From a virus (taxonomy: Duplodnaviria; Caudoviricetes): a stretch of DNA of 64,000 bases. Under the pieces are notes generated by a model. That model did no database searches. It saw only the letters and a program-made list of their open reading frames with translations, and had not been told where the DNA came from. The translations under genes and the position numbers were made by a program. The DNA is taken from IMG/VR virus record IMGVR_UViG_3300046779_001841, positions 1 through 64,000 of that record, one strand, 5' to 3'. The stretch's first letter is position 1. Every line of letters begins with the position of its first letter. This document shows, piece after piece, positions 7,834 to 35,704 of the stretch.

Positions 7834-8229
7834 TTGGGATTAAGTCAATATTCTATTGATATTCTCTTCTTTAAGAAACAAACATTCTTAAAGGATTTCA
7901 AATATGTATTTTTCAAAAAGATCCAGTCTTCAAGCAAGACTTGCTATGATTAATAATCAATTTTCTATCTCTAAAAAGTCCAGCGAAGATAAAAACCAAT
8001 TTGTCTTAGGTTTGGAAGAAATATTAAAAAAAGAATTTAAACAAGATCGCAATGGCTTTAGTCTATCAATTAAAGTTCCATTTGGTCTTTTTCAACTAGC
8101 AGTTCAAGAACATAATAATAAATATGATGTTACTGTTACTGATATTCAATATGGTTATGGATACACTTTAAAAGGTTTTAAAGAAAACGAAGTTCAAGAA
8201 TTTATTAAACAATGGAAGAAAAAAGAAGG
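7834..8229 (+). repeat. About 400-bp direct repeat, copy 2
   Basis: Matches 7113-7510 with a 2-bp indel upstream of the gene and clustered substitutions inside it. Confidence 0.9.
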
Positions 8230-30013: not shown

Positions 30014-30328
30014 ATGAAAACTTTACTTCTTGTTATGCTTCTTCTCACTGCTTGTAGTGGTGATGAAAAGAAAGATACTCAAACTCAATCTGATTCTTCT
30101 TTAATTGATATGATGGTAATTGATATGTCTATTACTGCCAGTGATTTAGAAGTACATTCCACTATGGATTTAGAAGTCCAAAGTGACTTGATGATTGATA
30201 TGGAAACACCTGTTGTTGATATGGAAACACCTATGGTTGATATGTCAGTCTTAGATATGTCTAGTTCGGATATGGCATCTGCATCCGATATGAGTGTTGT
30301 TGATATGACAAACACCACGGATATGTAA
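30014..30328 (+). CDS. Putative lipoprotein with Asp-Met repeat tail
   Basis: Signal peptide MKTLLLVMLL plus lipobox LTAC (Cys14), and ten DM dipeptides in the C-terminal 75 aa. Confidence 0.75.
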   Translation: MKTLLLVMLLLTACSGDEKKDTQTQSDSSLIDMMVIDMSITASDLEVHSTMDLEVQSDLMIDMETPVVDMETPMVDMSVLDMSSSDMASASDMSVVDMTNTTDM

Positions 30329-31109: not shown

Positions 31110-32237
31110 TTAAAACAAGCTATCCTGTTTCAATCGTTTCTTATATTTCTTTCCTTTCTTGGTGCTTCCTTTAAGCCAGCCATCAGATAAATAAGTTTCT
31201 AGTTCTTCTTTCTTTACCATTTTAAAAATATCATTTTTAGTAATAGATATAAGACCTTTAAGATTATTGCCTTTAATCCATCCTTCAAATAAATATTGAT
31301 CTAGTTCTTCTTTCTTTACTCTTTTAAAGACACCATCTTTAGATATAAAGATAAGACCTTTACTCGTGCCTCCTTTAATCCAACCTTGAGATAAATAAGT
31401 TTCTAGTTCTTCTTTCTTTACCATTTTAAAAGCACCATCTTTAGAGATCCAAATAAGACCTTTACTATGGTTGGTTTGAACCCAACCTTGAGATAAATAA
31501 GTTTCTAGTTCTTCTTTCTTTACCCTTTTAAAAGCACCGTCTTTAGTAATAGAGATAAGACTTTTACTATGGTTGGTTTGAACCCAGCCATTAGATAAAT
31601 AAGTTTCTAATTCTTCTTTTTTTACCATTTTAAAAGCACCATCTTTAGAGATCCAAATAAGACCTTTAAGATAATTGCCTAAAATCCAACCTTGAGATAA
31701 ATAAGAATCTAGTTCTTCTTTTTTTATCATTTTAAAAATATCATCTTTAGTAATAGAGATAAGACCTTTAAGATAATTGCCTAAAATCCAACCTTGAGAT
31801 AAATAAGTTTCTAGTTCTTCTTTCTTTACTAGTTTAAAAGCATCATCTTTAGTAATAGAAATAAGTCCTTCTACAGAAGAAGAACCAGAACCAAGATTTT
31901 TATTTGCCCACTGATCTTTAAAAAAATCTTTTAAGTATTTGTTTAATCCAATCTCACTCGCACATAACCCTTCTTTGTTTTTACAATATCCCACAACATG
32001 AAACTTATATTCAGATAAGTTTTTCTTAATGGTTTCTTTTTTAAAGAATGGATTGGACGAATTGCCATAGTAATCATTAGCTTGACTTAATGATGTTGCA
32101 GTCTTTTGACCAGAATATCCTAAATGGAAAGAACCATCTGCATTATGGTGAGTAATGACATAAAGAAATCTAACTTTATGATCATCACTAAAATCTAGCA
32201 TTTGTTGAAAATCTTGTTTGGAAATATTAAAAGACAT
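31110..32237 (-). CDS. GIY-YIG (Seg-like) endonuclease-like protein with seven 34-aa repeats
   Basis: FLYVI...GYSGQ, DYYGNS, and conserved Glu in ASEIG. Repeats KGLIxIxKDxxFKxVKKEELxxYLSxGW at 31158-31871. ATG 32237 is 9 nt after AAGGA. Confidence 0.7.
   Translation of the reverse strand: MSFNISKQDFQQMLDFSDDHKVRFLYVITHHNADGSFHLGYSGQKTATSLSQANDYYGNSSNPFFKKETIKKNLSEYKFHVVGYCKNKEGLCASEIGLNKYLKDFFKDQWANKNLGSGSSSVEGLISITKDDAFKLVKKEELETYLSQGWILGNYLKGLISITKDDIFKMIKKEELDSYLSQGWILGNYLKGLIWISKDGAFKMVKKEELETYLSNGWVQTNHSKSLISITKDGAFKRVKKEELETYLSQGWVQTNHSKGLIWISKDGAFKMVKKEELETYLSQGWIKGGTSKGLIFISKDGVFKRVKKEELDQYLFEGWIKGNNLKGLISITKNDIFKMVKKEELETYLSDGWLKGSTKKGKKYKKRLKQDSLF
31158..31871 (-). repeat. 7 x 102-bp coding tandem repeat
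   Basis: Exact 34-aa periodicity: 125 + 7x34 + 15 = 378 aa in the ORF track. Confidence 0.95.
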
Positions 32238-32274
32238 AAAGGTCAATCCTTGAGATGAGATTTATAAAAACTAT

Positions 32275-32283
32275 CTTATATTA
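32275..32283 (-). promoter_or_regulatory. Class-M motif TAATATAAG
   Basis: 37 nt upstream of ATG 32237. Confidence 0.55.
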
Positions 32284-32316
32284 TTTTTGTTCTACCATAT
32301 ATTAAAATAAGCAACA

Positions 32317-33222
32317 CTATTGCAATCGTTTCTTGTATTTCTTTCCTTTGTTATTACCACCTTTAATCCAGCCTTCAGATAAATAAGTTTCTAATTCTTC
32401 TTTCTTTATTTTTTTAAAAGCACCGTCTTTAGTAATAGAGATAAGACTTTTAGCATTACTGCCTTTAATCCAGCCATCAGATAAATAAGTTTCTAGTTCT
32501 TCTTTTCTTACTCTTTTTTCAATATCATTTTTAGTGATAGAGATAAGACCTTTACTGTGATTGCTTTGAAACCATCCTTGAGATAAATAAGTATCTAGTT
32601 CTTCTTTCTTTATCATTTTAAATTCATCATCTTTAGAGATCCAAATAAGACCTTTACTGTGAGTACCTAAAATCCATCCATTAGATAAATAAGTATCTAG
32701 TTCTTCTTTCTTTATTTTTTTAAAAATATCTTCTTTAGAGATCCAAATAAGACCTTTATTATGATTTCCCAAAATCCATCCTTGAGATAAATATTGATCT
32801 AGTTCATCATTCTTCACTCTTTTAAAAGCATCATCTTTATTAATACAAATAAGACCTTCTGGAGAAGAACCAGCACCAAGATTTTTATTTGTCCATTGAT
32901 CTTTAAAAAAATCTTTTAAGTATTTGTTTAATGCAAGTTCACTTGCACATAACTCTTCTTTGTTTTTGCAATATCCTACAATACACATCTTGTATTCAGA
33001 TAAGTTTTTCTTAATGGTTTCTTTTTTGAAAAAAGGATTGGTCGAATTGCCATAGTAGTCATTTGCTTGACTTAATGAAGATGCAGTTTTTTGACCAGAA
33101 TAACCTAAATGGAAAGAACCATCTGGATTATGATGAGTGATGATATAAAGAAATCTAACTTTACAATCTTCGCTGAAATTTAGCATTTGTTGGAAATCTT
33201 GTTTGGAAATATTGAAAGACAT
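32317..33222 (-). CDS. GIY-YIG (Seg-like) endonuclease-like paralog with five 34-aa repeats
   Basis: N-terminal domain highly similar to 31110-32237, repeats at 32350-32859. Confidence 0.7.
   Translation of the reverse strand: MSFNISKQDFQQMLNFSEDCKVRFLYIITHHNPDGSFHLGYSGQKTASSLSQANDYYGNSTNPFFKKETIKKNLSEYKMCIVGYCKNKEELCASELALNKYLKDFFKDQWTNKNLGAGSSPEGLICINKDDAFKRVKNDELDQYLSQGWILGNHNKGLIWISKEDIFKKIKKEELDTYLSNGWILGTHSKGLIWISKDDEFKMIKKEELDTYLSQGWFQSNHSKGLISITKNDIEKRVRKEELETYLSDGWIKGSNAKSLISITKDGAFKKIKKEELETYLSEGWIKGGNNKGKKYKKRLQ
32350..32859 (-). repeat. 5 x 102-bp coding tandem repeat
   Basis: 124 + 5x34 + 10 = 304 aa in the ORF track. Confidence 0.95.
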
Positions 33223-33257
33223 AAAGGTCAATCCTTGAGATAAGATCTAAAATCTAT

Positions 33258-33266
33258 CTTATATTA
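33258..33266 (-). promoter_or_regulatory. Class-M motif TAATATAAG
   Basis: 35 nt upstream of ATG 33222. Confidence 0.55.
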
Positions 33267-33489
33267 TTTACAAGGATTATTTTCTTTATCTTTATCAGTT
33301 TTAATTAGTTTTAAGTCTTTATCATAGATACCAGTGTTAATAAGAACTCTTTTAAATCTTTCTTTATCAGCAACAACAATCTTGATGCTTTCTAAGATGA
33401 TTTCACAATCAGTTTTTTTATTATTCATAGTGAAAATCCTTTTCATATATTATAATACTCTTTGTCTATAGTCATTATGGAGTATAATA

Positions 33490-34578
33490 ATGAATGAACA
33501 AGAAATAGCAAAAGAAATCGCTAAAAAATATGGTTTGAAATTCTTATCTGAAAGTTATAGAGATAACAAAGAAGTAATAATAGAAGCCTTAATGCAAGAT
33601 GCTAGTGATTTTGCATATCTTAGAAAAGACTTGAAAGATGATTGGGAGATCTTACTCACTGCATTAAGATCATCTAATGATCGAAATAAAAAATCTTTCT
33701 TCTCTATTGGAGAACATAGTAGAGATGAAAGATTTTTTAAAAATTTATATGTTCTAAGCTATTTAGAACATAATTCTAAATATTTAGATGCAGATTCAAT
33801 AACAAAATTCTGTTGTACAGAATCTCTTTTGGAAGTCTTTTTACATTTACCACGATGTGTAATAGATACTTTAAAATATGAAAAAGCTATTTTTGATAAT
33901 CCCTTGATGAAAATCCGATACTCTAAGACAAGAGAAGATGTTCTTAAACTTAAAAATAAAATTTGGTGTGATAGATTTAAAGAAAGAAGATATTGGAGAG
34001 AAAATTATCAAGAATATATGTCACCAGATATAGAAACATATTGTTCTATCTTTAGTGATGATAGAGATGTTGCTGAAGTTTTGGTTCTAGGTGCAGGTAG
34101 CTGGATAAGTCATTTCTCAAGTGAAATATCAAGTGATCCTGAAATTTATGCTTTAGCTTCTTATGAATATGAAGATTTAATACATAAAATAGATGTTGAA
34201 GATCGTGGAAGGATATATCAAACTGAAAATTGGAGATTCTTTAATAATAAAGAAATATACCTGAAGAACCTAGATCAATGGTTAAAAATAGAATTTTCAT
34301 CAAAAGATTTATATCTAATACAATCTAAAAATATAGGTAGTATTAAAATAGGTATTGCACAAGATTGTAATGCTAGACTTAAACAATTACAAACAGCCAA
34401 TCCTTATGAACTAAAATTAGTTCATGTTTTTAAAGGTATGGGGAACTTAGAAAAATACTTGCATAAAGAATTAGATGCCTTCAAATTACAAGGAGAGTGG
34501 TTTTCTTTTGATTGTAAAGAACATTTACCCAAAGTTTTATTAAATTTAATACCAGAAAATCAATGGTGTATTCTTTAA
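33490..34578 (+). CDS. DUF4116-like repeats fused to a T5orf172/MUG113-type GIY-YIG domain
   Basis: DNKEVIIEALMQD...DDWEILLTAL at the N-terminus, and LYLIQ...IKIG...RLKQLQTANP...LEKYLH...LQGEWF at the C-terminus. Confidence 0.8.
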   Translation: MNEQEIAKEIAKKYGLKFLSESYRDNKEVIIEALMQDASDFAYLRKDLKDDWEILLTALRSSNDRNKKSFFSIGEHSRDERFFKNLYVLSYLEHNSKYLDADSITKFCCTESLLEVFLHLPRCVIDTLKYEKAIFDNPLMKIRYSKTREDVLKLKNKIWCDRFKERRYWRENYQEYMSPDIETYCSIFSDDRDVAEVLVLGAGSWISHFSSEISSDPEIYALASYEYEDLIHKIDVEDRGRIYQTENWRFFNNKEIYLKNLDQWLKIEFSSKDLYLIQSKNIGSIKIGIAQDCNARLKQLQTANPYELKLVHVFKGMGNLEKYLHKELDAFKLQGEWFSFDCKEHLPKVLLNLIPENQWCIL

Positions 34579-35588
34579 AATAAAGAATACATTTGCCTTT
34601 TTTCACAAAAAAAAAGATCTTTCACTTTATCTTCTAAAAGACTTTGACATCCTATTATATAACCATTCTCTAAATGTTTTATTAGAGTTTTATGTTGTCT
34701 TTCTATATCAAGATCCTTTCTATTTAAGATTAGTAATTTAACATCTTTATTGATTGGATGTTTTAATGTTATGGTTCTAGCTTTTAATTTCCAACATAAA
34801 TATAATTTTTCAAGCATATTGTCTTTATGCACCAAAATAGTATTACCAGCTAAATCTATCATAGGCTTATTTGATTTTCCTAATATCACTGAATTTCTTA
34901 GTTTTTCTTTTACTTCAAGTCTAGCTAAAGATTTTCTTGATGCTTGTCTTTGTCTTTCTTTTACTTCAGATGTAGCTAATGCTTCTTTCATTCTTTTCTT
35001 TTTTAATTCTCTATGTTCAATATTTTCCCAACTTTTTTTAGTAGCATTTGATCTTTTTAACTTATGTTCTTCTGTGGCAAAAGCCTTTTTTTGACTTAAA
35101 GTTTTTTTCTTTTTAGTTTCTTCACTTTGTTTAAAACCACTCATGCCACCTTTTCCACCTACCTTAATATTATAACAAATCTTAAGACCCTTAACAACAC
35201 AACCATATTGTTGAATAAAGTTAATATCTAAAAGAGTAGCTTCTTCTTGATATGCAGATACCGAATCTTTAAAGAATTTTAAGATAAACTTTTTGAAATT
35301 CTTTTTTCCATATTTCTCAATAGCTAAATTAAAAGGGCAAATGTCTTTTCTATTCCTATTACCACTGCCTATATAAGAATTGACATTATTAACATGGGTG
35401 TGTTTACCTATATAGAACTTCTTAGTGATTAAGTTTTGTGTTAAGTAAATATAATGGTATCTACCATCATCACCTTTTTTAGGTTTAAGATTTTCTACAT
35501 CATACTTAGTAAAAATCTCATTTACTATTTGATTTGCTTTTTCTTCTTGACCATCAATAGAAATAGATGTATCTTGAGCATAACTCAT
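34575..35588 (-). CDS. Free-standing GIY-YIG (Seg-type) homing endonuclease with NUMOD3-like motif
   Basis: YIYLTQNLITKKFYIGKH, YIGSG, YNIKVGGKGG and QSEETKKK. Confidence 0.85.
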   Translation of the reverse strand: MSYAQDTSISIDGQEEKANQIVNEIFTKYDVENLKPKKGDDGRYHYIYLTQNLITKKFYIGKHTHVNNVNSYIGSGNRNRKDICPFNLAIEKYGKKNFKKFILKFFKDSVSAYQEEATLLDINFIQQYGCVVKGLKICYNIKVGGKGGMSGFKQSEETKKKKTLSQKKAFATEEHKLKRSNATKKSWENIEHRELKKKRMKEALATSEVKERQRQASRKSLARLEVKEKLRNSVILGKSNKPMIDLAGNTILVHKDNMLEKLYLCWKLKARTITLKHPINKDVKLLILNRKDLDIERQHKTLIKHLENGYIIGCQSLLEDKVKDLFFCEKRQMYSLF

Positions 35589-35689: not shown

Positions 35690-35704
35690 TATAAAACAAT
35701 TATT
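35690..35704 (-). promoter_or_regulatory. Class-L motif AATAA-N4-TTTATA
   Basis: AATAATTGTTTTATA, 101 nt upstream of 35588. Confidence 0.4.

Follow-up and report, generated by a model that had tools for sequence, protein, structure and literature searches.

Tandem genes for putative homing endonucleases with arrays of an uncatalogued 34-residue module in an uncultivated jumbo phage

In this study, we analyzed a DNA stretch of 64,000 nucleotides (nt), here called the window, which is the first part of the virus record IMGVR_UViG_3300046779_001841 (316,221 bp, complete by rating) and has a G+C content of about 30%. The source is an uncultivated jumbo phage. Two adjacent genes on the minus strand of the window, A and B, are tandem paralogs, and each encodes an N-terminal domain (N-domain) followed by an array of exact 34-residue units, seven in A and five in B. 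We consider it likely that A and B are free-standing genes for homing endonucleases, duplicated in tandem, located in an island of selfish nucleases and equipped with a presumed DNA-binding repeat array. According to this explanation, the N-domain would be a GIY-YIG catalytic domain in which two Tyr, one Glu and one Asn are retained, while the His pair of SegE-like domains is replaced by Arg and Lys. The array would lie along the DNA and tether the nuclease beside a long degenerate target, as is the case for I-TevI-type enzymes with their modular tails, and the number and make-up of the units would set the length and the sequence preference of the site. Arrays would evolve by unequal crossing-over and gene conversion between units, and alleles would also be exchanged between related phages.

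Organization of genes A and B

The two genes and their parts are located as follows.

31110..32237, minus strand: gene A, 375 amino acids (aa), predicted GIY-YIG-type endonuclease with seven units and a basic tail with a QDSLF-type end
31884..32237, minus strand: N-domain of A, aa 1–118, by profile and predicted fold a divergent SegE-like GIY-YIG nuclease domain
31158..31871, minus strand: array of A, seven exact 34-aa units, aa 123–360, with seven matches to the hidden Markov model of the unit
31110..31157, minus strand: C-terminal tail of A with stop codon, lysine-rich according to the translation
32238..32290, minus strand: upstream element of A, about 50 nt, with an A/T-rich box and an AAGGA ribosome-binding site
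32317..33222, minus strand: gene B, paralog of 301 aa with five units, tail ended by TAG (CAG in A)
32872..33222, minus strand: N-domain of B, aa 1–117
32350..32859, minus strand: array of B, five exact 34-aa units, aa 122–291
33223..33275, minus strand: upstream element of B, a near-identical string matching that of A

The full open reading frames (ORFs) begin with TTG and span positions 31110–32246 (A) and 32317–33231 (B). The ATG codons at 32237 (A) and 33222 (B), used here as starts, agree with those of the metagenomic relatives P0003 and P0004. The N-domains of A and B are identical at 322 of 360 nt (89%). Since the 50-nt element with its AAGGA site is also nearly alike upstream of both genes, the duplication took in the expression signals. 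An initial annotation of the window had described tandem proteins with seven and five exact 34-aa units, and this description holds: Tandem Repeats Finder reported a period of 102 nt for A (6.9 copies, 82% matches, score 830; 31168–31870) and for B (5.0 copies, score 479; 32345–32858), and the dipeptide Gly-Trp (GW) occurs seven times in A and five times in B at a spacing of exactly 34 residues. Within the whole 316-kb genome, the unit is restricted to these two genes.

The C-terminal tail is strongly basic, unlike the weakly basic arrays. Gene A ends in KQDSLF (31110–31130), the Seg-like neighboring gene described below in QMYSLF (34575–34600), and P0031, an A/B-type protein of a related phage, in GMESLF. 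These tails are similar in sequence to sliding-clamp-binding motifs and may be of that type; to our knowledge, a clamp-binding tail is unusual on homing endonucleases. In B (32296–32325), TAG at the position of the CAG codon of A removes the tail, and the DNA past this stop still reads ...CCLF.

The N-terminal domain

An exhaustive HMMER search of 1.8 billion representatives retrieved only nine relatives of the N-domain (representatives at 50% identity), and a pattern scan of viral contigs for this domain yielded no further loci. The profile of the nine sequences was compared by hhalign with a SegE-like GIY-YIG profile, built from other proteins with the same repeats, and matched it with 84% probability and an E-value of 7e-6. 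The GIY-YIG superfamily is marked by two short Tyr-containing motifs on strands one and two, separated by 10–15 residues. In the stretch FLY(26) ... LGY(41)SG, Y26 and Y41 are found at the sites of the motif tyrosines and G43 at that of the glycine, all invariant in the nine-member family. Also invariant is E95, which is aligned with the catalytic metal-binding Glu of GIY-YIG enzymes (E75 of I-TevI). N112, as part of W-x-N-K, is placed at the Y-N of the GIY-YIG family and kept in those members that reach it; this Asn is assigned by position only. Opposite the two His of SegE-like domains stand R23 and K45, again invariant in all nine members.

The AlphaFold2 (AF2) model of B was used for structural comparisons. 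Its N-domain has a predicted local distance difference test (pLDDT) score of about 80–90 and the element order helix, strand, strand, helices, strand, helix, with strands at residues 22–31, 37–47 and 77–85 and helices between and after them. The predicted three-stranded antiparallel sheet flanked by helices is that of the GIY-YIG fold. In a comparison of this domain with 48,161 solved chains by VIA-align, PD-T4-3, a GIY-YIG-type restriction enzyme (Z 6.0), and I-TevI (1LN0; Z 5.9, root-mean-square deviation 3.1 over 80 residues) were followed by UvrC (Z 4.6) and T4 EndoII (Z 4.0), with HIGLE, R.Eco29kI and Slx1 scoring lower. At least seven GIY-YIG structures were among the top 30 of all chains, ranks 1–3 included, with Z-scores that are moderate (4–6) but concordant. 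In BFVD, a database of predicted viral structures, the top matches were phage homing endonucleases of the GIY-YIG, HNH and SegE-like types (best E-value 8.7e-12), and neighbors in the ESM Atlas bear SegE_GIY-YIG. When Foldseek was run on the PDB with the complete model, the outcome was uninformative, since this model represents a flexible multi-domain chain.

By profile and predicted fold, the N-domain belongs to the SegE-like GIY-YIG nuclease domains as a divergent member. Thereby, the nuclease-like N-domain of the initial annotation is supported through its alignment to SegE-like domains and its fold matches to I-TevI, UvrC and EndoII, while the Pfam models miss it. The ratio of nonsynonymous to synonymous substitutions (dN/dS) is 0.16 between the N-domains of A and B and 0.15–0.24 among four alleles, which indicates purifying selection on both paralogs. 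The domain is probably active as a nuclease.

The repeat unit and the recognition-code idea

Aligned by column, the 12 units of A and B have 13 invariant columns, including L3, I4, I6, K8, K13, E19, L20, Y23, L24, G27 and W28. Position 5 is S, W, F or C and position 7 is T, S or N, with S-T in six of six and W-S in four of four units; position 14 is L, M, R or K, and positions 29–34 vary in blocks. Altogether, 18 of the 34 columns are variable, 11 of them strongly; six of these are linker positions. This table bears out the near-invariant scaffold, the switching of position 14 and the paralog-specific order and number of units given in the initial annotation. All eight tail strings listed there were found, plus two more; the motif string is garbled when read as a regular expression, but the facts underlying it are correct.

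In the full-length AF2 model of B, each unit is predicted to form a beta-hairpin followed by a helix of nine residues and a short strand at GW (pLDDT 70–79). The five residues between units have pLDDT values below 50, and with a predicted template modeling (pTM) score of 0.39 the model has no fixed inter-unit geometry. A single unit folded alone, using an alignment of 107 units, reached a pLDDT of 86.8, which suggests that the unit is an autonomous mini-domain and the array resembles beads on a string. The AF2 models and fold searches also support the earlier statement that the unit is of the beta-beta-alpha type and unrelated to the repeats of transcription activator-like effectors (TALEs). 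It has no conserved Cys or His, so Cys2-His2 zinc ligands are absent.

No significant family for the unit was retrieved from Pfam, NCBIfam or the PDB sequences when the complete proteins, the N-domain profile or a profile of 107 units served as queries; the best E-value of a PDB sequence search with the unit was 0.34. The PHROGs entry is phrog_1175 (E 1.5e-23), a family of unknown function. Matches to SH3_2, HTH_17, Tn916-Xis and GSU3473 were rejected as partial, sub-threshold and summed over repeats; judged from the sequence, the partial HTH_17 and excisionase matches (wing and last helix) may reflect a remote origin of the unit. Fold matches of the single unit to ribosomal protein N-domains, BRK and the GINS B-domain (Z at most 3.5, E at least 2.5) were regarded as generic beta-beta-alpha similarity, and no homology was inferred from them. 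The NUMOD1, NUMOD3, NUMOD4 and IENR models were not matched by A or B and HTH_17 was matched only below threshold, NUMOD2 (Sitbon and Pietrokovski) being outside the comparison. With the same limit, no description of the module was found in the literature searched, including a phylogenomic survey of GIY-YIG proteins from 2006 (PMC1564403). Judged from these sequence comparisons, the unit represents a hitherto uncatalogued module in homing endonucleases of phages, with the core GxIxIxKxGxxKxIxxxELxxYLxxGWxxG.

The initial annotation had suggested a possible repeat-programmed nuclease whose specificity changes by repeat shuffling; in the strong form of this reading, each unit would read a short DNA step via positions 5, 7, 14 and its end, so that the order of units spells the target and shuffling re-programs it. 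The fixed period, the near-invariant scaffold with variation in few columns, and the autonomous units, whose number and order vary between paralogs and alleles, are consistent with such a system. Also, positions 5, 7 and 14 would be situated on the open face of the hairpin, as deduced from the alternating conserved hydrophobic residues, and family-wide W, N, H, R, K and Y are frequent at them. These residues are typical of DNA contacts, as in beta-sheet DNA readers. The coupling of positions 5 and 7, however, argues for a different origin: all four W-S units have the 12-nt string ATT TGG ATC TCT in common, including the synonymous states of two flanking Ile codons, while S-T units mostly carry ATC TCT ATT ACT. 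Since synonymous sites are part of the string, the coupling represents a haplotype inherited by duplication and not the outcome of co-adaptation that occurred repeatedly. The mutual information of positions 5 and 7 was at chance in 112 units of distant proteins (z = 1.0). The reported covariation is thus real within the 12 units but absent in the distant ones.

Selection was analyzed by class-wise Nei-Gojobori counts, for which the variable codons were selected after the fact. Within the 12 units, dN/dS was 0.07 for the scaffold and 0.96 for the eleven most variable codons; between A and its allele P0003, it was 0.40 for the variable codons and 0.26 for the presumed exposed hairpin positions. 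Positive selection was detected by these counts neither among the 12 units nor between A and P0003, and the values for the variable codons fit relaxed constraint better than diversifying selection. The last residues of the unit, which vary in blocks, fall within its predicted flexible linker (positions 30–34). Together with the dN/dS values of 0.96 and 0.40, this speaks against the hypervariable positions as a signal of specificity. Furthermore, 101 different triplets at positions 5, 7 and 14 in 132 units leave no room for a small alphabet. Code-type readers such as TALEs and pentatricopeptide repeat (PPR)-like proteins confine their variation to one or two specificity positions and pack their units into a continuous superhelix; in A and B, variation extends over 18 columns, and a continuous superhelix is not predicted, judging from the linkers and the pTM score. 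A diversity-generating retroelement, considered because of the tail-fibre protein with an Mtd_N domain in the window, was rejected because the variable codons are not adenine-specific. The arguments for a programmable code, covariation and hypervariable blocks, therefore have simpler explanations, and we regard the programmable nuclease as unlikely. Similarly little credence is given to the wider idea that arrays of GW mini-domains are a third natural modular reader of double-stranded DNA after zinc fingers and TALEs, in which each metal-free unit would use the exposed hairpin face (positions 5, 7 and 14) to read a short DNA step and by which homing nucleases would be retargeted through unit reassortment.

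The arrays themselves have been rearranged. Over the first 17 codons, units A3 and A5 are alike (50 of 51 nt), whereas their last six codons are dissimilar (8 of 18 nt identical); A3 and A4 are identical in the last six codons (18 of 18 nt) and differ in their heads (42 of 51); the heads of A4 and B5 are alike (48 of 51 nt). The units are thus mosaics whose heads and tails were reassorted. Synonymous divergence is about 0.4 between units and 0.40 between the paralog N-domains, which makes the arrays as old as the gene duplication. From the last three units of B through the intergenic region to nucleotide 60 of A, the window and the metagenome contig L005 are about 99% identical, and the identity then declines through the N-domain of A to 62–73% in the array; this contig is only 1.3 kb long and spans repeats, so it may be a chimeric assembly. 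Its allele at the A locus (P0003) has five units compared with seven in A, and the relative P0004 has three. With unit parts reassorted and copy numbers differing between alleles, the earlier claim that the arrays change by shuffling was substantiated.

Distribution, genome context and comparison with known systems

A search of 5.8 billion proteins yielded 28 relatives with the core motif in 1–8 copies at a spacing of about 33–130 residues. With a module-only protein as query, a word-indexed search of proteins yielded only four relatives, a number that gives no estimate of the abundance of the module. Among 30 distant module-bearing proteins, GIY-YIG was found in 12, SegE_GIY-YIG in 8, HNH in 2 and NUMOD3 in 10, and several more have an HNH-like HHI-P motif recognizable by eye. 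Because it constantly occurs with homing-type nuclease domains and NUMOD3, the module probably binds DNA. Only three of 50,697 deposited phage genomes carry it, namely two Chryseobacterium phages and one uncultured phage of 485 kb. In Chryseobacterium phage MA9V-2, the module protein is annotated only as GIY-YIG superfamily and encoded between nrdB and nrdA. The nrdB-nrdA gap is a classic site of homing endonucleases.

The strict period of 34 residues is confined to members of the R23/K45 clade, i.e. A, B, P0003, P0004, P0031 and P0032. The metagenomic proteins P0033, P0035 and P0036 have the same rare N-domain, one GW unit and then three to four copies of a different repeat of about 110 aa, which is ordinary domain shuffling for such enzymes. 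Beside the gene of P0004, a 278-aa protein similar to P0038 is encoded (contig L006, 850–1686), in which NUMOD3-like motifs and a Cys-rich finger come after a shortened N-domain that is devoid of the Glu region; this may be a relative that has decayed or has no nuclease.

Two neighboring genes are part of this variable island.

33490..34578, plus strand: protein with DUF4116 and T5orf172/MUG113 domains (Pfam E-values 4e-12, 2e-10 and 4e-9)
34575..35588, minus strand: Seg-like GIY-YIG homing endonuclease with NUMOD3-like tail (phrog_314, E 8e-27; GIY-YIG, E 1e-3)

The first of these lies between the nuclease genes on the opposite strand, with a 4-nt overlap at the stop of the Seg-like gene, and is a putative further selfish or DNA-binding gene of the island. 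The Seg-like gene has its first 14 codons and its upstream region in common with P0031, and by tblastx positions 7894–8043 of contig L003 match window positions 35695–35546. On this contig, which belongs to a more distant phage, P0031 is a single gene adjoining the same peptidase gene as in the window, and it consists of the start and upstream DNA of the Seg-like gene joined to an A/B-type domain and six units. The common start and upstream DNA suggests a common promoter-leader cassette that was placed before different nuclease genes. Amid conserved genes, nuclease genes are thus present patchily or replaced between close genomes, as seen from the gene content of L003 and the allele of L005. 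Since the L003 gene content and the L005 and P0004 alleles differ at the locus, the island is a hot spot of nuclease-gene exchange, in which arrays are replaced between near-identical genomes.

Several findings weigh against A and B being homing endonucleases. At E < 1, A and B are unmatched by the Pfam models GIY-YIG (PF01541) and SegE_GIY-YIG (PF19835), and recognition of the family takes a profile-profile comparison. In the aligned stretch, no counterpart was found of the first-helix Arg of I-TevI (R27) and the His following it. The net charge of the arrays (+7 in A, which is mildly basic; +1 with an isoelectric point of 8.0 in B) is low for an array that is supposed to bind DNA. An empty target site was not encountered, all of L003, L005 and L006 having a nuclease gene at the locus, so homing is deduced from family and context only. 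Finally, the allele comparison depends on L005, with its possible chimerism.

The missing Pfam matches, the unrecognizable R27 equivalent and the replaced His pair would be explained by a catalytically dead domain in proteins acting as sequence-specific DNA binders, e.g. repressors or site markers. With Y26, Y41, E95 and N112 retained, R23 and K45 invariant in nine members and a low dN/dS (0.15–0.24), the pattern agrees with an active site that is maintained and in which other basic residues act as substitutes, and we consider loss of catalysis very improbable. The low charge of the arrays could instead indicate nucleases of loose specificity that do not home but act against host DNA or rival phages, with the array as a DNA clamp or a binder of other polymers or proteins. 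The weak, chance-level likeness of the unit to SH3-like and excisionase-wing profiles and the clamp-binding-like tail of A would agree with this, as would the presence of two adjacent, intact paralogs under selection, an unusual situation for genes that are purely selfish. However, all other proteins found have the module attached to a GIY-YIG or HNH domain, in many cases together with NUMOD3; one relative is located in the nrdB-nrdA gap, and the locus itself is a variable island with allele replacement. A role without homing therefore seems improbable, and homing endonuclease genes remain the favored interpretation. The analysis demonstrates how the genes and their repeats are built, the family of the N-domain by profile and fold, the predicted autonomy of the unit, the joint occurrence of module and nucleases and the mosaic origin of the units, while we infer that the module binds DNA, that the proteins act as nucleases and that the genes home.

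Elsewhere, the window encodes a ribonucleotide reductase, a RecD-like helicase, a RecA/UvsX-like protein, an SbcC-like ATPase, a type IB topoisomerase and the tail-fibre protein with the Mtd_N domain mentioned above; from the ribonucleotide reductase gene, no host assignment was possible. The topoisomerase is a 599-aa phage protein (47053–48852) whose IB domain is of the eukaryotic or poxvirus type (E 1e-11). At 30014–30328, a small lipoprotein-like ORF has a signal peptide ending in Cys and a low-complexity repeat region rich in D, M, S and V.

Homing endonucleases are classic examples of nucleases built with exchangeable DNA-binding modules, and the catalogue of such modules (NUMOD1-4, zinc fingers, AP2, helix-turn-helix) is old. 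The locus adds a compact, metal-free module, predicted to fold on its own, which occurs in GIY-YIG and HNH enzymes of uncultivated large phages. The arrays of A and B are unusually regular and differ in copy number and composition between paralogs and near-identical phages. If DNA binding by the module is specific for sequence, A, B and the alleles with five and three units would constitute a natural series for relating array composition to target sites, and the scaffold could be of interest to genome engineers, being engineerable if the units truly act as modular readers. If binding is non-specific, it would still be an unannotated domain whose description improves the annotation of phage nucleases.

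By profile and predicted structure, the nearest family to A and B is the T4 SegE type (PF19835, SegE_GIY-YIG). They have in common the free-standing phage gene, the N-terminal position of a short-form GIY-YIG domain, with Y-x-G-x-[basic], Y-x-G-S-[GS], Glu and an Asn before a glycine turn, and a modular tail. Unlike the T4 SegE type, A and B have Arg and Lys in place of two His and a strict 34-aa array of a module absent from Pfam. I-TevI, the endonuclease of the T4 td intron, is a nuclease joined to a multi-module DNA-binding region made up of a zinc finger, a NUMOD3 helix and a helix-turn-helix, each present once. Its catalytic fold is similar to that predicted for the N-domain of B, and the combination of a nuclease with an extended multi-module region is the same; in contrast, A and B repeat one predicted mini-domain five to seven times, and the canonical Arg and His of I-TevI are unrecognizable in them. 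The closest deposited protein, MA9V2_138 of Chryseobacterium phage MA9V-2 (OR513085.1), was the best match among the 50,697 phages (30% identity, E 3e-25) and combines GIY-YIG with about seven copies of the same module, but its N-domain is ordinary SegE-like and its units are variably spaced at about 33–45 aa. Arrays of C2H2 zinc fingers resemble A and B as small tandem units of, here predicted, beta-beta-alpha fold on short flexible linkers, whereas the units of A and B have neither metal ligands nor a conserved linker, and homology is not detectable. With TALE repeats, the unit length of 34 aa is shared by coincidence: A and B have no helical solenoid packing, no single hypervariable di-residue and no detectable homology to them.

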